The notes under the pieces were generated by a model. That model did no database searches. It was not told the origin of the DNA and saw only the letters and a program-made list of their open reading frames with translations. DNA of 35,783 bases from a virus: UHGV virus genome UHGV-0117379. One strand, 5' to 3'. The translations under genes and the position numbers were made by a program. Below are positions 3,684 to 15,143 of this stretch, in pieces (positions within the stretch are counted from its first letter, which is position 1; each line of letters begins with the position of its first letter).

Positions 3684-3980
3684 ATGCTGACGAAAGAACC
3701 ATCATTTGCATCGCTGCTGGTAAAACAAAGCCCGGCAATGCACTACGGTCACGGCTGGATCATGGGTGAGGATGGTAAACGCTGGCATCCGTGCCGTTCA
3801 CAAGATGAATTGCTGTCTGAATTGACCACGGGGAAACGGAGAAAGTCAAAATGTATGCAGCGGAAAGTGAAGTGGTTTATCAGTTTCGTTACAGAGGGGA
3901 GAGTTATTCAGTACCTGAAGATGATTTGCTCTGTTGTTATCCGTCGTTGTCGGGCGATGGCAGTTACTTTTTCACGCTAA
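3684..3980 (+). CDS. Hypothetical early protein
   Basis: ATG 3684 follows GAGGTG RBS directly after the cII stop. The second half of this frame is Cys/Arg-rich and low in complexity and overlaps ORF 3851..4075, so the 3' extent is uncertain. Confidence 0.4.
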   Translation: MLTKEPSFASLLVKQSPAMHYGHGWIMGEDGKRWHPCRSQDELLSELTTGKRRKSKCMQRKVKWFISFVTEGRVIQYLKMICSVVIRRCRAMAVTFSR

Positions 3981-4075
3981 AGGATGGGACGTTTTTACGG
4001 GGAGAGCAGGTTAAAGAGACGATACGAAAAAATGTATCTCCTCTTGAACGTTACCGTAAGAGCAAAGAACGATAG
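3851..4075 (+). CDS. Hypothetical early protein (74 aa)
   Basis: ATG 3851; protein-like composition (MYAAESEVVYQFRYRGESYSVPEDD...); overlaps the previous ORF by about 130 nt in another frame. Confidence 0.5.
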   Translation: MYAAESEVVYQFRYRGESYSVPEDDLLCCYPSLSGDGSYFFTLKDGTFLRGEQVKETIRKNVSPLERYRKSKER

Positions 4076-4097
4076 TTGCGTTTTGGGGATATGAATT

Positions 4098-4439
4098 ATG
4101 GCAATTAATGGCGCTGCGGCGACTGTTCCATTAAGCCCCGGTGAACGCCTGAATGGACTTAATCACATTGCGGAGTTAAGGGCGAAAGTTTTTGGCCTGA
4201 ATATTGAGTCAGAGCTTGAGCGGTTTATTAAAGATATGCGTGATCCACGGGATATCAATAGCGAACAAAATAAACGGGCACTGGCTGCCATATTCTTTAT
4301 GGCAAAAATTCCAGCTGAACGTCATAGCATCAGCATTAATGAGCTGACCACTGACGAAAAGCGGGAGTTGATTAAAGCAATGAATCATTTTCGTGCAGTG
4401 GTGAGCTTATTTCCCAGACGGCTAACCATGCCGAATTAA
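4098..4439 (+). CDS. Hypothetical phage early protein (113 aa)
   Basis: ATG 4098 with GGGGA RBS; sits within the early operon. Confidence 0.65.
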   Translation: MAINGAAATVPLSPGERLNGLNHIAELRAKVFGLNIESELERFIKDMRDPRDINSEQNKRALAAIFFMAKIPAERHSISINELTTDEKRELIKAMNHFRAVVSLFPRRLTMPN

Positions 4440-4506
4440 CCAGCTAATGAAATTAATGGCGTAAACCCGCCGGGCATCCCTTTATCTAAATTCAGGAGAA
4501 TTGATT

Positions 4507-4740
4507 ATGCGTAATATTGAAACCCTCACGACTAAAACCGGACCGGATGACGCAGGGCTTAATATTTTACTGACAGAGGCTCGTCTGGAAGAACGCCGGG
4601 CAAGGGCTGAAGCAATGGCTGCCCGCCTTGATAGTCTTGCGTGTCATATCACATCCCGCCAGCTAAACCACGTCGAAGCGGCAGAACTGCTGCGTGTGAC
4701 CGCTGAAGCAATCCAGAACGAAGCGCAGGAGATCCACTAA
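4507..4740 (+). CDS. Hypothetical phage early protein (77 aa)
   Basis: Track ORF starts at TTG 4501; ATG 4507 follows CAGGAGA RBS; stop overlaps the next start (TAATG). Confidence 0.6.
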   Translation: MRNIETLTTKTGPDDAGLNILLTEARLEERRARAEAMAARLDSLACHITSRQLNHVEAAELLRVTAEAIQNEAQEIH

Positions 4741-5266: not shown

Positions 5267-6120
5267 GCACCATCCTGAAATGGGCGGGTAATAAAACCAC
5301 CATTATGTCCGAACTGAAAAAATACCTTCCTGCTGGCACGCGACTGGTTGAACCTTTCGCGGGTTCTTGTGCTGTGATGATGGAGACGGATTACCCCAGC
5401 TATCTGGTTGCGGATATTAATCCTGATTTAATCAACCTCTATAAAAAGGTTGCTGCTGATTGTGAGGCGTTTATATCTCGTGCCAGAGCTTTATTTGAGG
5501 AAGCAAACAGAGAGGTGGCTTATTACAACATAAGGCAGGAGTTTAATTACTCCACTGAAATTACTGATTTCATGAAAGCGGTATATTTTCTGTATCTCAA
5601 TCGTCATGGTTACCGTGGGCTATGTCGCTATAACAAGAGCGGGTATTTCAACATTCCCTACGGTAATTATAAAAATCCGTATTTCCCTGAAAAAGAAATT
5701 CGCGCATTTGCAGAGAAAGCCCAGCGGGCAACGTTTATCTGCGCCAGCTTTGATGAAACGCTGGCGATGTTGAAGGCGGGGGATGTGGTGTATTGCGATC
5801 CGCCTTATGACGGTACGTTTTCCGGCTATCACACTGATGGCTTCACTGAAGATGACCAGTATCACCTGGCATCCGTTCTTGAACATCGATCATCTGAAGG
5901 TCATCCGGTCATTGTTTCTAACAGTGACACATCCCTGATCCGTTCGCTGTATCGCAATTTTACTCACCACTACATCAAGGCAAAACGCAGCATCGGCGTG
6001 GCAGCTGGTGAGAGTAAATCTGCAACAGAAATCATCGCTGTTTCCGGGCCGCGCTGCTGGGTAGGATTTGATCCTTCGCGTGGCGTGGATTGTTCCGTCG
6101 TGTACGGAGTGCGTGCATGA
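5263..6120 (+). CDS. dam: DNA adenine methyltransferase (Dam family, N6-adenine)
   Basis: N-terminal LKWAGNK...PFAGS AdoMet motif and catalytic DPPY motif ([10 protein letters not shown]); ATG 5263 overlaps the previous stop; AGGAGGTG RBS. Confidence 0.85.
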
Positions 6121-8531
6121 GCCATGCTGATATGAACAACTGCAGCGGCTTTAACGAGGTCGCCGCAGCATTCTCATGGAACAGCCCGAAAAAGGCCATT
6201 AACCCTTATCTGGACCCGGCGGAAGTTGCGCCGGTTTCTGCGCTTTCAAACCTGATCACTCTGTACGCTGCCGATAACGAGCAGGAACAACTGCGCCGCG
6301 AGGCACTGAGTGATCAGGTCTGGGAGCGTTATTTCTTTAATGAATCCCGTGATCCTGTCCAACGCGAAATGGAGCAGGATAAGCTAATTAGCCGGGCAAA
6401 GCTGGCGCATGAGCAGCAGCGTTTTAATCCAGACATGGCCATTCTGGCGGACGTCAACGCCCAGCCTTCCCATATCAGCAAGCCGCTGATGCAACGTATT
6501 AAATACTTCAGCAGCCTGGGCAGGCCAAAGGCTTATTCCCGCTATTTGCGTGAGACGATTAAGCCATGCCTGGAACGACTGGAGCATGTACGCGACAGTC
6601 AGCTATCCACTTCTTTTCGCTTTATGGCAAGCCATGAAGGGCTGGACGGCCTGCTGATCCTGCCTGAAATGAGTCAGGATCAGGTGAAACGCCTGTCCAC
6701 CTTGGTAGCTGCGCATATGAGCATGTGCCTTGATACAGCTTGTGGCGATTTGTATGCCACCGATGATGTTACGCCAGAAGAAATCCGCAAGACATGGGAA
6801 AAGGTGGCAGCGGAAACCCTGCGTCTGGATGTTATCCCGCCTGCGTTTGAGCAACTCCGTCGGAAAAGAAACCGCCGTAAACCCGTGCCTTATGAACTCA
6901 TTCCTGGTTCGCTGGCGCGTATGTTATGCGCCGACTGGTGGTATCGGAAATTATGGAAGATGCGTTGCGAATGGCGGGAAGAGCAGTTGCGTGCTGTTTG
7001 CCTGGTCAGCAAAAAAGCATCTCCCTATGTCAGCTATGAAGCCGTGATGCATAAACGTGAGCAGCGCCGTAAGTCGCTGGAGTTTTTCCGTTCTCATGAA
7101 CTGGTGAACGAAGACGGCGACACGCTGGATATGGAAGACGTGGTAAACGCCAGCAGCAGCAACCCTGCGCATCGCCGCAATGAGATGATGGCCTGTGTTA
7201 AAGGTCTGGAGCTTATCGCGGAAATGCGCGGTGACTGCGCCGTTTTCTACACCATCACCTGTCCGTCACGTTTCCATTCCACGCTAAATAACGGCAGGCC
7301 CAACCCGACCTGGACAAATGCGACGGTAAGACAAAGCAGTGATTATCTGGTCGGTATGTTTGCTGCATTTCGTAAGGCGATGCACAAAGCCGGATTACGC
7401 TGGTATGGCGTGCGGGTGGCTGAGCCGCATCATGACGGTACAGTTCACTGGCACCTGTTGTGTTTTATGCGCAAAAAAGATCGCCGCGCCATTACTGCTT
7501 TGTTGCGTAAGTTTGCCATTCGTGAAGACCGCGAGGAGCTGGGTAATAACACGGAACCACGCTTTAAGTCTGAGCTGATAAACCCGCGCAAAGGTACGCC
7601 AACAAGCTACATCGCGAAATACATCAGTAAGAACATTGACGGGCGTGGTCTGGCTGGCGAGATCAGCAAGGAAACGGGTAAATCCCTGCGTGATAACGCC
7701 GAATACGTTAATGCCTGGGCGTCTCTGCATCGTGTTCAGCAATTCCGCTTCTTTGGCATTCCGGGGCGTCAGGCTTACCGTGAACTGCGATTGCTGGCTG
7801 GTCAGGCGGCAAGGCAACAGGGGGACAAAAAAGCAGGTGCGCCGGTACTGGATAACCCGCGCCTTGATGCCATCCTGGCTGCCGCTGATGCTGGCTGTTT
7901 TGCCACCTACATCATGAAGCAGGGCGGCGTACTGGTTCCCCGCAAATATCACCTCATCAGAACCGCTTATGAAATCAACGAAGAGCCGACCGCCTATGGC
8001 GATCACGGTATTCGTATTTATGGCATCTGGTCACCCATTGCAGAGGGCAAGATCTGCACTCATGCGGTGAAGTGGAAAATGGTTCGTAAGGCCGTTGACA
8101 TTCAGGAGGCGGCAGCCGACCAGGGCGCTTGCGCCCCTTGGACTCGTGGCAATAACTGTCCCCTTGCTGAAAATTTGAACCAACAAGGGAAAGACAAATC
8201 AGCTGATGGGGATACCAGAACGGAGATCACCCGCATGGATGACAAGGAGTTGCACGATTACCTGCACAGTATGAGCAAAAAAGAGCGCCGGGAACTGGCA
8301 GCAAGGTTACGCCTGGTGAAACCGAAATGGCGTAAAGACTACAAACAGCGAATTACAGAGCATCAGCGTCAGCAGCTCGTCTATGAACTGAAGTCCAGAG
8401 GATTTGATGGCAGCGAGAAAGAGGTCGATCTGCTCCTTCGCGGTGGCAGTATTCCGTCAGGAGCAGGCCTGCGTATCTTCTATCGGAACCAGCGTTTGCA
8501 GGAAGATGATAAGTGGCGGAACCTGTATTAA
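6117..8531 (+). CDS. A: Replication initiation endonuclease (P2 gpA-like, rolling-circle HUH type)
   Basis: ATG 6117 overlaps the dam stop; HUH-like motif HWHLLCF and paired-tyrosine motif [10 protein letters not shown]; about 800 aa, at the P2 gpA position. Confidence 0.85.
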
Positions 8532-8623
8532 TTACGCGGGTTAACAATTCGTGCTCTTAATAATACCAGGCATATCAGGCTGATGAACGTAAAAAAACGT
8601 TTTACATCAGTAAGATTATTATA

Positions 8624-8643
8624 TACTGTAAATATAAACAGTG
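8624..8643 (+). promoter_or_regulatory. LexA (SOS) box TACTGTAAATATAAACAGTG overlapping a putative promoter
   Basis: CTGT-N8-ACAG with AT-rich spacer at 8626-8641; about 45 bp upstream of the ATG at 8685; candidate -35 TTTTAC (8600-8605) and -10 TATACT (8622-8627). Confidence 0.6.
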
Positions 8644-8684
8644 GCTATACATACAGTGTTGCGTGTGGTGTCATAGGAGGAAAG

Positions 8685-8873
8685 ATGCAGGACTATTTTT
8701 TGGAGTCTTTGAAGCTCCAGCGCATTGATTTTTTTCTTAAGCTTGTAGCGGCTAGTGAGTGTAGTGATGAAGAGAAGGGGCTGGCTTTGCAATGGGTTTC
8801 TGAACTGACAGATGAACTCATGGCAAAAATCAGAACCCACGAATACAACCGCTCAATGGATGTCATCAGCTGA
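8685..8873 (+). CDS. Hypothetical small protein (62 aa), first gene of the LexA-box unit
   Basis: ATG 8685 with AGGAGG RBS (track ORF starts upstream at 8583). Confidence 0.5.
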   Translation: MQDYFLESLKLQRIDFFLKLVAASECSDEEKGLALQWVSELTDELMAKIRTHEYNRSMDVIS

Positions 8874-8883
8874 GGTGACTTTT

Positions 8884-9117
8884 ATGCGCATTGAAATAAT
8901 GATCGATAAAGAGCAGAAGATTAGCCAGTCTACCCTGGACGCCCTTGAATCCGAGCTTTACCGCAATCTGCGCCCCCTGTATCCCAAGACGGCGATCCGC
9001 ATTCGCAAAGGCAGTGCCAACGGTATCGAGTTGACCGGCTTAAAACTTGATGAGGATAAGCAGCGGGTAATGGAAATTATGCAGCAGGTCTGGGAAGACG
9101 ACAGCTGGCTGCATTAG
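8884..9117 (+). CDS. DinI-family protein (Tum-like SOS module)
   Basis: ATG 8884 with GAGGTGA RBS; MRIEIMID...KQRVMEIMQQVWEDDSW resembles E. coli DinI (MRIEVTIAK...KQRISEILQETWE), recalled from memory. Confidence 0.75.
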   Translation: MRIEIMIDKEQKISQSTLDALESELYRNLRPLYPKTAIRIRKGSANGIELTGLKLDEDKQRVMEIMQQVWEDDSWLH

Positions 9118-9403
9118 CGAACGTTGCGGACGATAAAACTGGCTTTTACCGTCCGCAAGGTTGAACAACGAGCCGTGCGAGGCGTTAGAAATTGCCTTTG
9201 TTAGTGCCTGCTTCTCATAAGAGGCACTATATATGCTAAATGCAGTGGTTTAAGGCAGAAACATCTTGCGCGATTAGGGGCAATGAACTTAAGTTAAGTA
9301 ACGCAACCAACAGTTAAAACGGTTGTCTTAGTTATAAGGAACTTGCTGTTGTGGTTGCTGGTGACGAAGTGTACACTTCCGCGCCGTATAAGAAGGAGGG
9401 GTT

Positions 9404-9622
9404 ATGTCAAGTATCGCCGCATTGAAGCTGGGTAATCCAGTTGAACGTTTGGCACGGGTTCTGAAAGAGAACCAGGACAAGCTCAATCTGAGTAAAGATG
9501 GTTTTGTGTCCGTAGATTTGTCCAACGAAGAAGCTATGAAAGCCATCCGAGATCAGATGGATAAGCTTGAAGGCATCAAAACGAGCACTGTTAAAGCAAA
9601 ATATTATTACAGAACCCGATAA
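9404..9622 (+). CDS. Hypothetical small soluble protein (72 aa)
   Basis: ATG 9404 with AAGGAGGGG RBS; stop overlaps the next start (TAATG). Confidence 0.6.
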   Translation: MSSIAALKLGNPVERLARVLKENQDKLNLSKDGFVSVDLSNEEAMKAIRDQMDKLEGIKTSTVKAKYYYRTR

Positions 9623-10464
9623 TGGCAACATTACTTTTAGCAGTGATTTTGGTTAGTGGTTTTATATATGTAAACCTATCACTTTCAACACGTTATAGAT
9701 ATAAGCGTTCCAATGGCTGGGACGCTTATTTTTTTGTGGCTGCATGGGGAATTGTCTTTTTCCTCGCTGGCGGCTTCCTTACCTTCGCTCTTAACATCAG
9801 CGGTGGGTTTCGCTGGTTTTCTAATGCGCTGAATCTGACTCCAGACAGCTTTAACGGGATGTTATCCACCACAACCGATAAACCGCAGCGCATCAATGAA
9901 ATTAAGCAAATCGCGTGGGTTGTGATTTCAATAGTTCTCGCGGCGCTGTTCGGTTGGCTAAACAAACGCCGTACTTCAAAAGGGGATCGCCGTTGGGATG
10001 CACTGGCAAAGGCAGTGGGAAACAATGCTTTTGAATCGCTGCTCATGGAAGCATCAGCTCGCCAGTTTCCTATCATTGCTACACTTTCATCACGCAAAAT
10101 CTATGTAGGGCTGGTGACTTGCCCTGCGTTGGAAAATGGATTGTCGGAACACCTTGAAATTCTCCCCTTGCTGAGCGGATATCGTGATAAAGACGACCTA
10201 ACGATAAATATCACGACAAACTATCATCAGCACTATCTTGATAGCGGTGTTATCAATGGGATGTCGCGCCTGAATATCCAGGATTTCCGTGTGCTTCTCC
10301 CTAAAGATGAAGTTGAAACCATCTCGTTTTTTGATACTGAAACGTATAACAAATTTAAAGAAAACGAAGCGCGTGACCGGAAAGACTGCCGCAAGTTGGG
10401 TGGTAAAAAGCCATCCGCACGCAGGAGAAAGACTGCTGGCGACGCAGAGCAGGGTAGTGCATGA
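9622..10464 (+). CDS. Membrane protein with three predicted N-terminal TM helices, unknown function
   Basis: Hydrophobic segments LLLAVILVSGFIYV, AYFFVAAWGIVFFLAGGFLTFAL and IAWVVISIVLAALFGWL, then a roughly 170-aa soluble domain; AT-rich. Confidence 0.65.
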   Translation: MATLLLAVILVSGFIYVNLSLSTRYRYKRSNGWDAYFFVAAWGIVFFLAGGFLTFALNISGGFRWFSNALNLTPDSFNGMLSTTTDKPQRINEIKQIAWVVISIVLAALFGWLNKRRTSKGDRRWDALAKAVGNNAFESLLMEASARQFPIIATLSSRKIYVGLVTCPALENGLSEHLEILPLLSGYRDKDDLTINITTNYHQHYLDSGVINGMSRLNIQDFRVLLPKDEVETISFFDTETYNKFKENEARDRKDCRKLGGKKPSARRRKTAGDAEQGSA

Positions 10465-10512
10465 CTATGCTGCATGAATTTGCATGATCGTTTGAGGATC
10501 GTTTTAGCTCCG

Positions 10513-10537
10513 GCCCGCCAGTTCAGGCGGGCTTTTT
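10513..10537 (+). terminator. Rho-independent terminator (GCCCGC-loop-GCGGGC followed by TTTTT)
   Basis: Read directly: stem 10513-10518/10527-10532, T-run 10533-10537, about 50 nt after the membrane-protein stop. Confidence 0.6.
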
Positions 10538-10581
10538 CATATCTCATGCAGGTGCATGAAAACCACTACACAAAGCGGGCA

Positions 10582-10600
10582 GGCGTGGCGGGGATACGAG
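10582..10600. other. Putative cos cohesive-end sequence GGCGTGGCGGGGATACGAG
   Basis: First 13 nt identical to the P2/186 cohesive-end consensus GGCG(A/T)GGCGGGGAAAGCA as I remember it (15/19 to 186). Preceded by five copies of TGCATGA. Confidence 0.4.
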
Positions 10601-10665
10601 CGCGCGCTCATTACTTTTATAATTCTAGGGTTATAATACAGGGCTATCTTTCTAGGAGAAAACAC

Positions 10666-12318
10666 ATGTCCTTAGAGTTTATCAAAGAACAGTTGTCAGA
10701 TTTTATCTCATCTACAGAACCAGAAGTAATGGCTATACAGGGTGAATGGGGAATTGGTAAAACCTATACTTGGAATACGTTCCTAAAAGATAATAAAGAT
10801 AAGGTTGCATTTAATAGATATAGTTATGTCTCTCTTTTTGGTATAAATTCACTAGATTCTTTAAAGTATTCTATTTTTGAGAATGCAATTACAAAGGAAT
10901 ATATTGGAAATAAACCTGATTTGGAGACAGCAACAACAAACGCAAGTGGACTTTTTGAATCGTTTTCTCGAAAAGCCGCAGGTTTGTTAAAAGAAGCTCC
11001 TGTTGTAAAAAACTTCTCTACGACACTTGAAGCAATGTCATTTCTGACCGTTTCTAAAATGATTGTAGTAATAGATGACTTAGAAAGGCGTGGCAAAAAC
11101 TTAGATGTTAAAGATGTTTTAGGGCTAGTATCTCTATTAAAGGAGCAGAAGGATTGTAAGGTGGTTCTATTGCTTAACAATGGCACAGCTAGTATGGAGG
11201 ATTATTCTACTTATAAAGAAAAGGTCATTGATAGAGATATCACTTACAATCCAACACCAGAAGAATGCGCAGATATAGCCTATAAAGGTGATTTTCATGT
11301 TTATAACTTGTTAAGTAAATATTCCATTTCTTTAGGTATCAAGAATATTCGAATCTTAAAAAAGATAGAACGTTTTTTCGTGTCCTTAACACCAAATATT
11401 ATAGGTGATGTTGAGACAATTTCAAATGAAGTTGCGCATTCATTAACTCTGTATTGTTGGAGCCATTACGGATTTTCTCCAGAGGGAGATGTGCCATCAC
11501 TAGAATATATTAGGGGAGTGAGGAATATATATACTTATAATGACAAGGAAGAAGGCCATGAGAAAGTCTGGCTTAATACCTTGCTTAAATATGGATATAG
11601 AAAAACGAATGATCTTGATGAGGTTCTTATTGATATGGTTAGATATGGCTATCTTGATAAGAGCAGTTTCCAAAGACAAATAAGCCTAAGGAATGAGGAG
11701 ATTACGCGTGATAATAAACGAGGTTCCTTATCTGAGGCATGGCAGTTCTTTCATAATTCATTTGATGACAATCAAAATCAGGTTGTTGACAAGCTATATC
11801 AAGCGGTGGTTGATGGGATGAAGTATGTGACTCCAAGTGATTTAGATAATGTTGTCGGACTATATAGGGATTTCGGAGAGAATGCTAAGGCGAGTGAATT
11901 GATTGAACAGTTTATTAATTATGGTAACGATGCTCTAAAGGAATATGTTCAATCTATTTATGTGAATGTTCATCCCGTAAGAGATGCTGAGTTGTTGTCA
12001 AAAATTCAAGCCTATTCTAATATTATAAATATTGATGGTTCAATATATGATGTTCTTAAGAAATTATCAGGTCAGAATGGTTGGTCTGATAGACATGAGG
12101 AAATATTGGATGCTGCTTCAGTAGATGACTACTATCAATTATTTAAAAATGTCATTCTTGATGGTGGTGATTCAATAATAGCTACGGCGCTTAAATTCGG
12201 AAATTATAGTAATGGTTCTGATAGAATGAATCGTATAGGGAAAAAGGCAAGGGATGCCTTGATAAGAATTGGAGATGAATCGGCGATTAATAAAATACGT
12301 GTAAGGCGATTTTTGTGA
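10666..12318 (+). CDS. KAP-family P-loop NTPase (candidate defence cargo)
   Basis: ATG 10666 with AGGAG RBS (track ORF starts at 10474). Walker A GEWGIGKT and KAP-type Walker B VVIDDLERR; AT-rich; own TATAAT boxes (10618-10623, 10632-10637) and a downstream terminator. Confidence 0.75.
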   Translation: MSLEFIKEQLSDFISSTEPEVMAIQGEWGIGKTYTWNTFLKDNKDKVAFNRYSYVSLFGINSLDSLKYSIFENAITKEYIGNKPDLETATTNASGLFESFSRKAAGLLKEAPVVKNFSTTLEAMSFLTVSKMIVVIDDLERRGKNLDVKDVLGLVSLLKEQKDCKVVLLLNNGTASMEDYSTYKEKVIDRDITYNPTPEECADIAYKGDFHVYNLLSKYSISLGIKNIRILKKIERFFVSLTPNIIGDVETISNEVAHSLTLYCWSHYGFSPEGDVPSLEYIRGVRNIYTYNDKEEGHEKVWLNTLLKYGYRKTNDLDEVLIDMVRYGYLDKSSFQRQISLRNEEITRDNKRGSLSEAWQFFHNSFDDNQNQVVDKLYQAVVDGMKYVTPSDLDNVVGLYRDFGENAKASELIEQFINYGNDALKEYVQSIYVNVHPVRDAELLSKIQAYSNIINIDGSIYDVLKKLSGQNGWSDRHEEILDAASVDDYYQLFKNVILDGGDSIIATALKFGNYSNGSDRMNRIGKKARDALIRIGDESAINKIRVRRFL

Positions 12319-12325
12319 TTTTTAT

Positions 12326-12347
12326 AGGGGTGATTAACCCCTTTTTA
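12326..12347 (+). terminator. Stem-loop (GGGG-TGATTAA-CCCC) plus T-run between the convergent NTPase and portal genes
   Basis: Read directly from the sequence; short stem, so moderate confidence. Confidence 0.5.
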
Positions 12348-12348
12348 T

Positions 12349-13377
12349 CTAATTTAATGAGTAATCATTAAATGCTATGATTTTTTCATTTAGCCAAGTA
12401 TTAATTTCTATAAGCCTTTTTTGTAACGGAATTAATTCATTTCGGACAAAGACTTTACTAGCCTTTTCCACATCCCCAAACCCCCCAACATTATTCGGCA
12501 TTATCCCCATCATTTGCGGCGGCACGCGGTGTGCCGCCATCATGTCGTCCCGGCTCACGTTCTTAATATTCAAAAACTCATCCTTCGCTGCGACCTCTGA
12601 CAACGGGATAATCTGAAGCCCGTCCTTTTTGCCGTTAGGCGAGTACATAAACAGGTTGCGGAAGTTGCCCGGACCTTTGGCGCTTTTCATCGCATTGCGG
12701 AGGTTGTTCACATCTTCCTGGTTCTGCGCGGCATCGGTCATGTACATGATGAAGCCTGCATGACTGCCGTTAATGTAATACTTCCGGCGGAACAGCGTGG
12801 CGGACTCGTTGAGCAGGGCTGACGGAATGGCAGAAAGATAACCTGGCAGGCCGTAGATCTCCTGGTTGATGTCCGGTTCCATCAGATGAAAAATGCTGCC
12901 TTTCGTGAACTGATACTGCTGGGTTGTAATACCATATTGCACAAACCAGTAGGTATCCAGGTCTAATCCGCGTCGGGTGTATTTTGCCAGCGCAGGTTCA
13001 AGGGCGATAACTTCACCGAAGCGGTTCGTGCGTTTCTCCAGGTAGGCGTTACCAAATACCAGATAGTCCTGCACAAAACGTGAAAAAGCCTGCTGGCTGA
13101 GCAGCGGGTGAGGGATATAGGTGCTGGTCAGAATATTGCACTTTACTGCAATCGGTGAGCTGTGATGCACGGCGGCGCGGAAGGCTCGCGCCAGTCCGTC
13201 AAAACTCACTGGCGGCTCATACCAGCGATCTGTCTGTACGCATTCCACATAGTCCAGTCGTTCGCGGCGATCCAGTACTGGAATGGGATCGCCGAAGCTG
13301 AATGCTTCGGCTGAAGTCTGGCTTTTATGCTGGGTCTGGTTCTGCGACGCAGCGCGGTTCTTCTTACTCTTTCCCAT
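12349..13377 (-). CDS. Q: Portal protein (P2 gpQ-like)
   Basis: 342 aa from ATG 13377 (track ORF begins at a TTG one codon earlier); size and position match P2 Q; start overlaps the P stop. Confidence 0.85.
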   Translation of the reverse strand: MGKSKKNRAASQNQTQHKSQTSAEAFSFGDPIPVLDRRERLDYVECVQTDRWYEPPVSFDGLARAFRAAVHHSSPIAVKCNILTSTYIPHPLLSQQAFSRFVQDYLVFGNAYLEKRTNRFGEVIALEPALAKYTRRGLDLDTYWFVQYGITTQQYQFTKGSIFHLMEPDINQEIYGLPGYLSAIPSALLNESATLFRRKYYINGSHAGFIMYMTDAAQNQEDVNNLRNAMKSAKGPGNFRNLFMYSPNGKKDGLQIIPLSEVAAKDEFLNIKNVSRDDMMAAHRVPPQMMGIMPNNVGGFGDVEKASKVFVRNELIPLQKRLIEINTWLNEKIIAFNDYSLN

Positions 13378-15143
13378 CAAAAAATCTCCACAATATTACT
13401 GGTATTGGCGGACTCGCCCTGCAGTGGTTCGTTAAACAGTGCGTGCATTGTTGCCCACGCCAGATCGGCGTGGCTGGTTTCTTCGCTGCGGCTGGCTTCA
13501 TACGTCGGGCGGTTGCCACTGGCGGTGGTGGCGCGACGGATTGCCATGAATGACTGCGCAATGTCGGTGTGCCCGGCGTCAAACTCCAGACGGCGGTGGC
13601 TGATAATGTCGTAGGCCTTGAGTACCAGAGCGTTTTTAACGTTGGGGTTGTAGACAAACTCCCGGACGGCAGGAAAAAACGCTTTCACGTTCTCGTAAAC
13701 CCCGTGACCGACGCCGGTTGAGTCGATACCGATGTATGTCACGTTGTACTGTTCAGTCAGTTTTTTGATGGCGTCAGCCTGGGCGCGGAAGTCCATCCCG
13801 CGCCACTGGTGACGCTCAAGAATGCGGAACTTACCGCCCGGCACGGCTGGCGGTGCCACCACCACGCACCCGGCGCTGTCGCCGTTTTGCGTACCTTTTG
13901 CCGGGTCATAACCGATCCACACTTCGCGCCAGCCAAACGGGCGCAGGGCCAGTGCATGAAAGTCGGTCCAGACTTCCCAGCTGTCCACCATGCACGCCTG
14001 CAGCTCGCTGAGCGGAAACACGGACGCGAGATCGTCCACAAACTCGCACATCAGCAGGTTCTGGTATTCGTCCGGGCTGTACTCCATGCGCAACTGGTCG
14101 AGATCGAACAGGTTACATCCGCCGCGCACAGCATCTTCCACGGTGACTATCTGGCGGTATTGCCCGTCTGCGCACAGCAGGCCGGGGGCCAGATTGCTGT
14201 GGGACAGGTCGATGTCCACCTTATCGGCTTTGTTGCGCCCACGGTTGAACAGCGCACCGGACCAGAACGGATAAGCACTGTGTGTCAGGCTGGATGGTGT
14301 GGAAAAATAGGTTTGTCGCCATTTTTTGTGAATAGCCATACCGGAAGCCACTTTGCGCAGCTCCTGGAATTTCGGTATCCAGAAATATTCATCCAGATAC
14401 AGGTTGCCGTGGTAACTCTGGGCCGTGCGGGCATTGGTGCCGAGGAAGTAAAGCGTAGCCCCGTTAGGAAGCACCATCGGATCGCCTTTCAGCTCCACTT
14501 CCACTTCTTTGGCGAAGTCGATGATGTACTGTTTAAAGACGTGGGCCTGTGCCTTACTGGCGGAAAGGAAAATCTGGTTACGTCCGGTAAGCAGGGCGTC
14601 AATCAGGGCTTCACGGGCAAAGTAAAAGGTCGCGCCGATCTGGCGTGACTTCAGCAGGTTGCGGATGCGGTTGGTTTTTCCGGCTTCCCACCAGTGGCGC
14701 TGGTAGTTGAACATGGAGGAATGGAAGATTTCTTCCAGCTTCGCAATCTGTTCATCGGTGAAAACGTTCTTTTCCGGCTGACGACGCGGGCCTTTGTTGC
14801 GGTTGGCGACGTTAGGGTTTAAGTCGGCTTCGTTGCCGCCATTGTTAAACTTGCCGATCCGCGCGTGGCGCTCCGACTGGCGCGCCAGCAGGTCAATCTC
14901 TTTGAAATCTTTCCCTTCTTTGTGCTCCTTCATGATGAGCTGGCAGTAGCGTGCGGCGGTGGTGAGCTGCATCTGATCCAGCGGCCCATAGTCACCCCAC
15001 TTGTCGCGTTTCTTCCAGCTGTGAACGGTTGCAACTTTCTCGCCCAGCATTTCAGCAATGCGGGCTACGCGATATCCCTGAAAGTACAGCAGCATGGCCT
15101 GCCGACGGGGATCGAGATCTGCGGATGTCAGTGTGGTGTTCAT
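13377..15143 (-). CDS. P: Terminase large (ATPase) subunit (P2 gpP-like)
   Basis: 588 aa, ATG 15143; immediately upstream of Q on the same strand and divergent from the O operon, as in P2. Confidence 0.85.
   Translation of the reverse strand: MNTTLTSADLDPRRQAMLLYFQGYRVARIAEMLGEKVATVHSWKKRDKWGDYGPLDQMQLTTAARYCQLIMKEHKEGKDFKEIDLLARQSERHARIGKFNNGGNEADLNPNVANRNKGPRRQPEKNVFTDEQIAKLEEIFHSSMFNYQRHWWEAGKTNRIRNLLKSRQIGATFYFAREALIDALLTGRNQIFLSASKAQAHVFKQYIIDFAKEVEVELKGDPMVLPNGATLYFLGTNARTAQSYHGNLYLDEYFWIPKFQELRKVASGMAIHKKWRQTYFSTPSSLTHSAYPFWSGALFNRGRNKADKVDIDLSHSNLAPGLLCADGQYRQIVTVEDAVRGGCNLFDLDQLRMEYSPDEYQNLLMCEFVDDLASVFPLSELQACMVDSWEVWTDFHALALRPFGWREVWIGYDPAKGTQNGDSAGCVVVAPPAVPGGKFRILERHQWRGMDFRAQADAIKKLTEQYNVTYIGIDSTGVGHGVYENVKAFFPAVREFVYNPNVKNALVLKAYDIISHRRLEFDAGHTDIAQSFMAIRRATTASGNRPTYEASRSEETSHADLAWATMHALFNEPLQGESANTSNIVEIF

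Follow-up and report, generated by a model that had tools for sequence, protein, structure and literature searches.

A two-gene cargo cassette of P2-like and other temperate phages encodes a small soluble protein and a predicted inner-membrane protein with an Sm-like domain

The window, a 35,783-nucleotide stretch of the virus genome UHGV-0117379, carries two overlapping genes in the interval of a P2-like prophage that extends from the gpA replication gene (6090-8531) to the portal gene (minus strand, 12349-13380). An earlier note, made from the sequence alone, had assigned the pair to the slot in which P2 carries old and tin, and its gpA-to-portal position agrees with this (Rousset 2022, PMC9122126). 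The pair and its surroundings comprise the following features:

8626..8641, plus strand: LexA box CTGTAAATATAAACAG, upstream of a 62-aa gene and a DinI-like gene
8685-8873: 62-aa gene, behind the LexA box and before the pair
8884-9117: DinI-like gene, directly preceding the leader of the pair
9118..9392, plus strand: leader or intergenic region before the pair, with aligned blocks conserved from Klebsiella and E. coli to Pectobacterium
9393..9399, plus strand: Shine-Dalgarno sequence AAGGAGG of the small gene, read from the sequence, 4 nt before the ATG at 9404
9404..9622, plus strand: small partner gene, an ORF of 72 aa with ATG start
9622..10464, plus strand: membrane protein gene, an ORF of 280 aa with ATG start
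9701..9735, plus strand: intragenic intrinsic-terminator-like element (terminator scan), covering codons 27-38 of the large gene
10512..10539, plus strand: terminator-like hairpin (10512-10533) and T-run after the pair (terminator scan; z = -4.1)

Both open reading frames and the strong ribosome-binding site described in the earlier note were found in place, as was the proposed translational coupling: the stop codon of the small gene (TAA, 9620-9622) and the start codon of the large gene (ATG, 9622-9624) overlap by one base to give TAATG. The GC content of the pair is 41-48%, compared with ~53% for the backbone. Judged by their sequences, both genes are real and under purifying selection and are not chance ORFs, because dN/dS relative to the E. 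coli version is 0.19 for the small and 0.05 for the large gene and because homologues are plentiful, with 73 close and ~3,200 distant clusters.

The 72-aa protein contains no hydrophobic segment, in agreement with its earlier description as soluble, and is predicted to fold into a helix, a beta-hairpin and a long helix (AlphaFold2 pLDDT 72). It matches phrog_9843, a family of unknown function, at 4.9e-36, and a Pfam search gave no significant match. The NCBI name 'multidrug ABC transporter ATPase' is spurious, an ABC domain being absent, and so is the UniRef name 'HrcA' for one homologue. Of 80 viral loci, 77 have a coupled small ORF ahead of the large gene, and an upstream small ORF accompanies it in nearly all of 21 genome loci that extend from Gammaproteobacteria to cyanobacteria and Acidobacteria. 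Homology between the partners is traceable by HMM into Betaproteobacteria, such that homologous partners precede the large gene in Gamma- and Betaproteobacteria. One Aeromonas partner has its own TM anchor, which puts that protein at the membrane.

The 280-aa protein displays three hydrophobic segments in hydropathy analysis, at approximately residues 2-19, 35-58 and 91-113. Its loop 1 and the region following TM3 are rich in K/R, and this charge distribution indicates an N-out/C-in topology in what is predicted to be an inner-membrane protein. An AlphaFold2 model (mean pLDDT 82) agrees, and the three N-terminal TM helices proposed earlier are confirmed at this level of prediction. The structure prediction that the earlier note had called for further places a cytoplasmic Sm-like beta-barrel in the C-terminal part (approximately residues 136-238), in which an N-terminal helix leads into five antiparallel, strongly bent strands, as in the Sm fold; the protein ends in a basic disordered tail. 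The best-conserved regions are the cytoplasmic ones, i.e., loop 1, which carries a GWDAY motif, and the Sm-like barrel, whereas the periplasmic loop is variable and carries indels. Neither protein had been credited with a recognisable motif; this holds at the sequence level, where Pfam, NCBIfam and PADLOC searches gave no significant match for either, but not for the C-terminal domain of the membrane protein once its predicted fold is considered.

Similarity of this domain to Sm, LSm and Hfq proteins amounts to ~10% identity, and the LSM and Hfq Pfam profiles matched neither the window protein nor any of 86 homologues. Unlike those proteins, the barrel is fused to three TM helices and its strands 4 and 5 are separated by an insertion, and the conserved KxYxG and PxxSGYRDK of the membrane protein are not Sm1/Sm2 motifs. 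Channels of the MscS family are built to a comparable plan, with ~280 aa, three TM helices in N-out/C-in orientation and then a small cytoplasmic beta-barrel belonging to the Sm-like class. The likeness is one of plan only (size, TM number and orientation, barrel), and homology to MscS was rejected: the MS_channel Pfam profile matched neither the window protein nor the 86 homologues, and a fold match covering TM3 and the beta domain was not obtained. An hhalign comparison with a Pectobacterium MscK-like protein returned a probability of 0.4%, and TM3 lacks the Gly/Ala-rich pore pattern of MscS. The CBASS effectors Cap15 and S-2TMbeta likewise fuse a membrane anchor to a small cytoplasmic beta-barrel, and S_2TMBeta entries also occur in the P2 hotspot (Rousset Table S5A, PMC9122126). 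They differ in barrel type, however, and the pair has no linked cyclase or signal-generating enzyme, its constant neighbour being the 72-aa protein, and no PADLOC match. Neither the profile libraries nor the full-text literature searched yielded an instance of three TM helices combined with an Sm-like barrel.

Approximately 80 nt into the large gene lies a hairpin (9701-9735) that had escaped the earlier note. It consists of the stem ATAAGCGTTCC / GGGACGCTTAT with 11-12 pairs, a loop of 5-7 nt and a T7 run, and it follows the pattern of an intrinsic terminator, with an upstream A-tract, a GC-rich stem and an immediate U-tract. Its fold energy is -22.2 kcal/mol (z = -6.3). The case for the hairpin is based on comparative evidence, since synonymous shuffling of the window sequence by itself offers modest support (88 of 5,000 shuffled versions were as stable as the real hairpin). 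Across 52 distinct gene versions the synonymous sites at the hairpin are frozen, with a codon entropy of 0.32 vs. 1.40 bits (p = 2e-5), and this constancy extends to both stem and U-tract. Compensatory changes occur at 2 pairs, and 91% of cells are paired, a share that drops to 31-50% if the partner columns are shifted. The stem of Vibrio homologues is a different one with the same end point, and they too have a T-run. The large gene thus appears to embed a conserved putative intrinsic terminator held by selection, which is predicted to favour expression of the upstream small gene. Here an RNA structure inside a coding sequence seems to be kept at the expense of amino-acid changes and so to constrain the protein sequence, and the predicted terminator provides a clean example in which one could test whether an RNA structure fixes the relative amounts of two coupled gene products. 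We also considered programmed -1 frameshifting at the T7 run and discarded it, as the hairpin is located upstream and not downstream of the run and many homologues read TTTTTAT and have no slippery heptamer. In an Rfam search of 8400-12400, the sole match was a sub-threshold sRNA that overlaps the hairpin.

The terminator-like hairpin and T-run after the pair confirm the rho-independent terminator of the earlier note. This element sits in a segment common to P2-like phages that lack the pair: query positions 1157-1261 (window ~10456-10560) match ST13-OXA48phi12.1 and Cartapus, both of which are without it. On the upstream side, the conserved blocks of the leader include the palindrome AACTTAAGTTAAGT at 9286-9299, and its consensus structure is weak. 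No sigma-70 consensus was detected by a promoter scan of the plus strand of 9118-9392; expression of the pair in the lysogen is therefore putative. A search for LexA boxes directly upstream of the pair found none, the sole nearby box being the one that precedes the DinI operon, from which the pair may be read through. The same arrangement of LexA box, DinI and pair is present in E. coli P2-likes and on a Pectobacterium chromosome.

The pair was identified in 52 of 5,426 complete E. coli genomes (~1%) and on 231 IMG/VR contigs. Similar P2-like phages differ in having or not having it; among 54 P2-like viral contigs, no further cargo separates it from the portal gene in 20, and varying systems follow it in the remaining 34. 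Elsewhere, it occurs next to hokD in the nin region of a lambdoid prophage, in a Vibrio lambdoid prophage, between int and attP of phage phiES15, next to the repressor of phage C5a and, in siphophages of Aeromonas and others, between the major tail and tape-measure genes. Carried at moron or hotspot sites by temperate phages of at least five distinct architectures, the pair is an extra, self-contained unit, variable among relatives and found in unrelated phages, i.e., an autonomous two-gene cargo cassette (moron) of temperate phages. The assignment to a cargo region in the earlier note is thereby borne out.

The siphophage position could be taken to indicate a structural or assembly accessory such as a tail assembly chaperone, an idea to which we give almost no credence and which was rejected. 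The protein has three TM helices, and the Aeromonas siphophage copy is flanked by its own promoter-like site (10/12) and terminator inside the tail operon. In several siphophage contigs, moreover, the cassette is separated from the tape-measure-sized ORF by two ORFs of 119-157 aa that lack individual annotation and are themselves candidates for the tail assembly chaperones. P2-likes carry the pair at a great distance from their tail genes, which retain their own E/E' genes, and non-phage chromosomal copies exist. Homology to phage structural or replication accessory proteins, which the earlier note had named as evidence against its reading, was not found in Pfam, PHROGs or PDB profile searches.

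The same siphophage position brings to mind a different precedent. HK97 gp15 and P22 SieA block the entry of incoming phage DNA at the inner membrane. The pair resembles the gp15 moron as a self-contained cassette in phage operons, which in siphophages precedes the tape-measure gene within the tail operon, with a predicted inner-membrane product and many non-phage chromosomal homologues. Gp15 is an inner-membrane exclusion protein with chromosomal homologues, encoded by a moron that lies between the gene for the tail assembly chaperone and that for the tape measure (PMC3594210). However, gp15 (YebO-like) has no sequence or fold relation to the pair and is one small protein, whereas the present cassette comprises two genes, one of which contains a terminator-like hairpin and encodes three TM helices together with a large, conserved Sm-like domain on the cytoplasmic side. 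Non-lethal superinfection exclusion, in which the membrane protein would block DNA entry at the inner membrane and the small protein would serve as an assembly or stability factor, would suit the predicted location, the tail-operon position and the many chromosomal homologues. We nevertheless consider it unlikely: conservation of the cytoplasmic parts and variability of the periplasmic loop are easier to reconcile with sensing or gating in the cytoplasm than with contact to an incoming tail tip, and the dose limit implied by the intragenic terminator would be unusual for a harmless blocker.

The gene layout, two small, overlapping, co-transcribed genes with the putative antidote upstream and presumably in excess, also matches that of a toxin-antitoxin module that would stabilise a prophage or genomic island by addiction without excluding phages. 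Predicted attenuation of the second gene points in the same direction, as do the adjacency of hokD in the lambdoid prophage and one E. coli strain in which the large gene is frameshifted and the adjacent small gene intact. Yet neither protein is similar to known TA families, integrated prophages do not need segregational stabilisation, and P0070, a distant homologue of the large protein, occurs without an upstream partner; a pure addiction role is accordingly improbable in our estimation.

Copies outside phages have to be weighed as well. Many of these are found in ordinary chromosomal neighbourhoods, and in five Pseudomonas species the pair occupies one syntenic chromosomal site adjoining dienoyl-CoA-reductase-like and OMP genes, which suggests a general cellular role. 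No enrichment for defence genes was observed among the neighbours of non-phage copies. It is a very large family of 3,199 clusters at 50% identity, mostly uniform in length and architecture, and the strong purifying selection on the large gene (dN/dS 0.05) does not resemble arms-race-like diversification. In P2-likes and Pectobacterium, the pair directly follows the LexA-box-controlled DinI operon. All of this could be explained by a general membrane or stress-physiology module, such as a regulated channel or a factor in membrane homeostasis, that would benefit the lysogen or phage development, for instance upon SOS induction, without targeting phages. We regard such a role as a real possibility, though one clearly short of even, given that the pair recurs at moron and hotspot sites of diverse temperate phages, that it competes with validated defence systems for one slot and that the DinI linkage is missing in diverged P2-likes and all other phage types.

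Anti-phage systems have been demonstrated in the gpA-Q hotspot of P2-like phages, which serves as a reservoir for them (Rousset 2022, PMC9122126); old, tin and other systems of the hotspot share the slot with the pair and are unrelated proteins. Our preferred reading, held tentatively and with slightly less than even confidence, is that the pair constitutes a putative lysogen-expressed, membrane-acting exclusion or abortive-infection module in which the dose of the membrane protein is tightly limited. Such tight control, as expected for a harmful effector, is suggested by the evidence for the intragenic terminator and by the strain with the frameshifted large gene. The Sm-like domains would assemble the membrane protein into a ring, as in Sm and Hfq proteins, which would bring 18-21 TM helices together in a complex that could disturb the inner membrane. 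The small partner would be made first and in excess, given that translation of the second gene would depend on coupling and many transcripts would stop at the intragenic terminator, and would bind the cytoplasmic face of the complex and hold it inactive. In a lysogen, the pair would then act against an incoming phage. The more likely route would be displacement or depletion of the partner, upon which the membrane would be opened or depolarised in a toxin-antitoxin-like form of abortive infection, as for RexAB; alternatively, genome entry would be obstructed at the inner membrane.

Lambda RexA/RexB is comparable to the pair in that a prophage encodes a soluble protein and a polytopic inner-membrane protein in one operon, and we propose by analogy that cytoplasmic control over a membrane effector may operate in both. 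The two systems are not homologous, their sizes are reversed, the partner here having 72 aa, and RexB has 4 TM helices and no Sm-like domain. Several observations argue against exclusion or abortive infection, the role that the earlier note had suggested, namely the absence of homology to any known defence protein, with PADLOC v2 negative, the common non-phage homologues whose neighbours show no defence enrichment, the partnerless P0070 and the lack of a detected sigma-70 promoter ahead of the pair.

A more speculative variant, which we regard as a long shot, is a putative RNA-gated membrane abortive-infection system that follows type-III-toxin-antitoxin logic with a pore as the toxin. It builds on the predicted Sm fold, the selected U-tailed hairpin and the translational coupling. 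The membrane-anchored Sm-like ring would act as a tethered Hfq and bind the U-tailed short transcript released at the terminator within its own gene; this labile RNA, possibly together with the 72-aa protein, would keep the ring-shaped multi-TM effector closed. Upon host transcription shut-off or RNA degradation by a phage, the ligand would be lost and the membrane complex would open.

Should the exclusion or abortive-infection reading apply and the pair exclude phages, it would represent a widespread new defence family on prophages of Klebsiella, Salmonella, Enterobacter and E. coli, and would matter for host range in phage therapy. Should it not exclude phages, it would be a conserved bacterial membrane module repeatedly borrowed by temperate phages. 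In either case, a recurrent hotspot occupant has so far had no name and no Pfam or NCBIfam model despite its very large family. The pair is listed as 'hypothetical + hypothetical' (WP_000094764 + WP_000212611) in Table S5A of Rousset 2022, and the tables of cloned systems do not contain its motif, indicating that it was not tested there (PMC9122126). No paper naming the E. coli or Klebsiella phage accessions of the pair was found, and literature searches on Sm-like domains with TM helices and defence, and on newer P2-hotspot work, returned nothing relevant.

A profile search against PDB sequences yielded no match, and PHROGs matches of both proteins were confined to unknown-function families, phrog_3630 in the case of the membrane protein. 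Against PADLOC-DB v2, the pair had no match and 77 distant members matched no defence model, apart from one stray weak pAgo match (E = 0.0022). DUF6338, for which no functional literature was found, was matched weakly by 6 of the 77 distant members, the best at 4.6e-5 and below the gathering threshold. A Binatia homologue scored 16.4 bits (cut-off 26.5) over its N-terminal 133 residues, and a distant relation to DUF6338 is thus possible by sequence, although uninformative. Among the BFVD viral structures, all matches were weak and confined to small Sm-like or uncharacterised phage proteins.

The pair lies in the cargo slot of a P2-like prophage, between gpA and the portal gene and with a terminator-like hairpin 3' of it, which agrees with its earlier placement. 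From gpA to portal the order is LexA box, 62-aa gene, DinI-like gene, pair, terminator-like hairpin and KAP NTPase gene:

6090-8531, gpA replication gene
8626-8641, perfect LexA box CTGTAAATATAAACAG, overlapping a -10-like TATACT
8685-8873, 62-aa gene (phrog_698), 3' of the LexA box
8884-9117, DinI-like gene, 77 aa (Pfam DinI, 2.7e-24)
9124-9158, hairpin after the DinI stop codon, 9-bp GC-rich stem TTGCGGACG...CGTCCGCAA, without U-tract
9204-9227, second leader hairpin, GTGCCT...AGGCAC
9286-9303 region, palindrome AACTTAAGTTAAGTAACG, a leader block together with CAACAG...CTGTTG and CTTCCGCGCC
9404-9622, + strand, small gene of the pair (72 aa)
9622-10464, + strand, large gene of the pair (280 aa)
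9701-9729 plus T-run, + strand, terminator-like hairpin 80 nt into the large ORF (terminator scan)
10666-12318, KAP-family P-loop NTPase gene, 550 aa, phrog_4740 (Pfam 5.5e-7; PADLOC candidate PDC-S49, 4.5e-28)
from 12349, - strand, portal and terminase genes, with capsid and tail genes further on

The SOS-controlled unit of LexA box, 62-aa gene and DinI-like gene (8601-9117) resembles the tum region of phage 186. [quoted passage not shown] On the other side of the pair, the segment 10456-10560, terminator included, is 85-97% identical to P2-like phages that do not carry the pair, namely Klebsiella ST13-OXA48phi12.1 and Escherichia phage Cartapus; in the latter it is located at the extreme genome end, adjoining cos. 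The segment resembles a backbone junction where cargo cassettes are swapped. The KAP gene is inserted between this segment and the portal gene, and its GC content of ~33%, against ~53% for the backbone, marks it as a separate and probably defensive cargo gene. A longer KAP ORF from 10474 crosses the terminator; the ATG at 10666 has an RBS before it, and 10474 is probably not the real start.

Both ORFs of the pair are genes rather than chance ORFs, since both are under purifying selection relative to the E. coli version (dN/dS of 0.19 for the small and 0.05 for the large gene). The strong RBS claimed for the 72-aa ORF is present (AAGGAGG precedes the start), and the proposed TAATG coupling is borne out, the TAA stop of the small ORF overlapping the large ORF's ATG by one base. 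Hydropathy likewise upholds three TM segments in the 280-aa protein and a soluble 72-aa protein, in which no hydrophobic segment was found. For the large protein an N-out/C-in topology is indicated by loop 1 and the stretch after TM3, both rich in K/R. In line with the earlier note, which recognised no motifs, searches of Pfam, NCBIfam and PADLOC gave no significant match to either protein; in PHROGs they belong to phrog_9843 (small) and phrog_3630 (large), both function-unknown families. The label "multidrug ABC transporter ATPase", which NCBI gives to many 72-aa copies (P0075, P0081 and other homologues of 9404-9622), and the UniRef label "HrcA" on one homologue of the large protein have no domain support and were rejected as propagated mis-annotations.

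The AlphaFold2 model of the large protein (mean pLDDT 82, 54 homologues in the alignment) places the TM helices at ~2-29, 33-60 and 87-119. It also has two short helices, a beta-rich domain spanning 151-236 and, at the C terminus, a helix and a disordered, basic tail. The small protein is modelled with moderate confidence as a helix, a beta-hairpin and a long helix. The large protein shares its fold with Sm/Hfq proteins but not their sequence family, and has the body plan of MscS (an Sm-like beta domain joined to three TM helices) without homology to it; MscS homology was tested and not found.

A word-indexed search returned 73 relatives in Enterobacterales, Aeromonas and Vibrio, and a full profile search 3,199 clusters at 50% identity (E <= 0.001), nearly all of 215-340 aa and matched end to end. 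Conservation is highest at G13, G32, Y36 and G43 (TM1, cytoplasmic loop 1, TM2) and, within the barrel, at K159, Y161, G163, P182, S185, G186, Y187, R188, Y201 and F237. All of these except G13 and G43, which are glycines of TM helices, are on the cytoplasmic side; the periplasmic loop is variable. An ORF of 58-88 aa abuts or overlaps the large-gene start almost everywhere (21 loci; one-genome-per-species contigs), as far as Pseudomonas, Betaproteobacteria, a cyanobacterium, Binatia and Acidobacteria, and in IMG/VR 77 of 80 loci have the partner by tblastn. By HMM iteration the partners are homologous across Gamma- and Betaproteobacteria, and beyond these they are positional analogues only. 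In one Aeromonas MAG (locus L020, 5728-5994) the small partner has its own N-terminal TM helix, so that at least one lineage has a membrane-tethered partner. The large gene is frameshifted or truncated beside an intact small gene at 3716-4557 of locus L014 (E. coli MIN9) and in P0257, P0259 and P0263; the reverse was not seen in the loci examined.

The hairpin inside the large gene comprises an A-tract, GCGTTCC, a loop, GGGACGC and TTATTTTTTT, in a region coding for KRSxGWDAYFF, and its 51-nt segment folds at -22.2 kcal/mol (z = -6.3). Across 52 distinct large-gene versions, with protein identities as low as ~42%, codons of the stem and U-tract hardly change (AAG 52/52, CGT 49/52, TCC 46/50, GAC 49/51, GCT 50/50, TAT 51/52, TTT 52/52), unlike the loop glycine codon, which varies. 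Mean codon entropy is 0.32 bits in the hairpin vs 1.40 bits in the other 84 conserved-amino-acid columns (Mann-Whitney p = 2e-5). In three lineages pairing is kept by double changes that also alter the protein: CGT to CGC with Asp to Gly, CGC with Asp to Ser, and Ser to Ala with Asp to His. In a 37-sequence alignment 91% of cells pair, compared with 31-50% when partner columns are slid, and two pairs have changes on both sides. Given the frozen codons and compensatory changes, a covariation basis of three independent events plus synonymous-site conservation, selection on RNA or DNA structure at 9701-9729 is well supported. From its canonical form we infer that the hairpin may terminate transcription. 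Vibrio homologues lack this stem and have another stable one ending at the same nucleotide, followed by a U-run (z = -4.0, -5.1); no comparable element was found in the more distant homologues of Pseudomonas, Hafnia, phiES15 and C5a.

Upstream, conserved blocks of the leader (9118-9392) extend to Pectobacterium and, in part, to Vibrio. RNAalifold gives weak structure support (2 compensatory pairs in 3 sequences), and neither an Rfam match for the leader nor a sigma-70 consensus 5' of the pair in the window was found. Transcripts may reach the pair by read-through from the LexA-controlled DinI operon.

The small gene comes first and is translationally coupled to the large one, and with a probable attenuator many transcripts would encode the small protein alone. 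The Sm-like fold normally builds hexameric or heptameric rings. The large protein could form a potentially harmful ring-shaped membrane complex, restrained by an excess of its small cytoplasmic partner; coupling, attenuator, cytoplasmic conserved surfaces, ring-building fold and one strain in which the large gene is frameshifted and the small one intact together fit such a model. In layout the pair resembles RexAB, HK97 gp15 and Cap15-type TM-plus-barrel effectors and is a member of none; pair architecture and intragenic terminator have no precedent in the profile libraries or literature searched here. We would describe the pair as prophage cargo for a putative membrane-acting two-gene module of an uncharacterised family.

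The pair is an autonomous cargo cassette. At 99.5% identity it occurs in Klebsiella phage ST15-OXA48phi14.1, with a SEFIR-domain gene 3' of it, and a ~80%-identity version is present in 52 of 5,426 complete E. coli genomes, in P2-like prophages, in every case 3' of DinI and followed by differing genes (AAA ATPase plus HNH; hypothetical plus TIR; sets of hypotheticals). Among 54 P2-like IMG/VR contigs with both pair and portal gene, 20 have the pair as the last gene before portal, and in 34 other cargo of 0.6-3 kb comes after it; the pair also occurs in P2-like phages with gpA at 33-40% identity and no DinI. Rousset et al. list it in hotspot loci as "hypothetical + hypothetical", and it is absent from their cloned systems. 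Outside Peduoviridae it is found in an E. coli lambdoid prophage (nin region, adjoining hokD), a Vibrio lambdoid prophage, Cronobacter phage phiES15 (between integrase and attP), Pseudoalteromonas phage C5a (adjoining the repressor) and, repeatedly, siphophages, between major tail protein and tape-measure genes.

Because of this repeated carriage at lysogenic-conversion and hotspot sites, we tentatively suggest that the pair may protect the lysogen against other phages; abortive infection or a TA-like mode would be likelier than a pure entry block, as the conserved parts face the cytoplasm. The main rival, a general membrane or stress function borrowed by phages, seems to us somewhat less likely; in its favour are the large chromosomal distribution of the family, the strength of purifying selection and, in P2-like phages, the neighbouring SOS operon. 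Non-phage copies include a LexA-box/DinI/pair island adjoining a tRNA gene in Pectobacterium, a syntenic chromosomal locus common to five Pseudomonas species, and others with metabolic neighbours; no defence-gene enrichment was found among neighbours of non-phage copies (context statistics cover ~120 loci).

Relative to the E. coli version (L002), dS across 8685-10464 is 0.03 in the 62-aa gene, 0.63 in DinI, 0.51 in the small and 1.8 in the large gene, a strong mosaic that suggests recombination breakpoints within this stretch, possibly between the pair's two genes. The siphophage tail-operon cases (compared loci L008/L009, 4785-5771, L094, L108, L111, L114, L115 and L117, in Aeromonas and other siphophage contigs) suggest a recurrent insertion hotspot, and the Aeromonas copy carries a terminator of its own besides a 10/12 promoter-like site. 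The HK97 gp15 moron occupies this same tail-operon region, flanked by the genes for tail assembly chaperone and tape measure; gp15 itself, a superinfection-exclusion protein of the inner membrane, has chromosomal homologues as well (PMC3594210).
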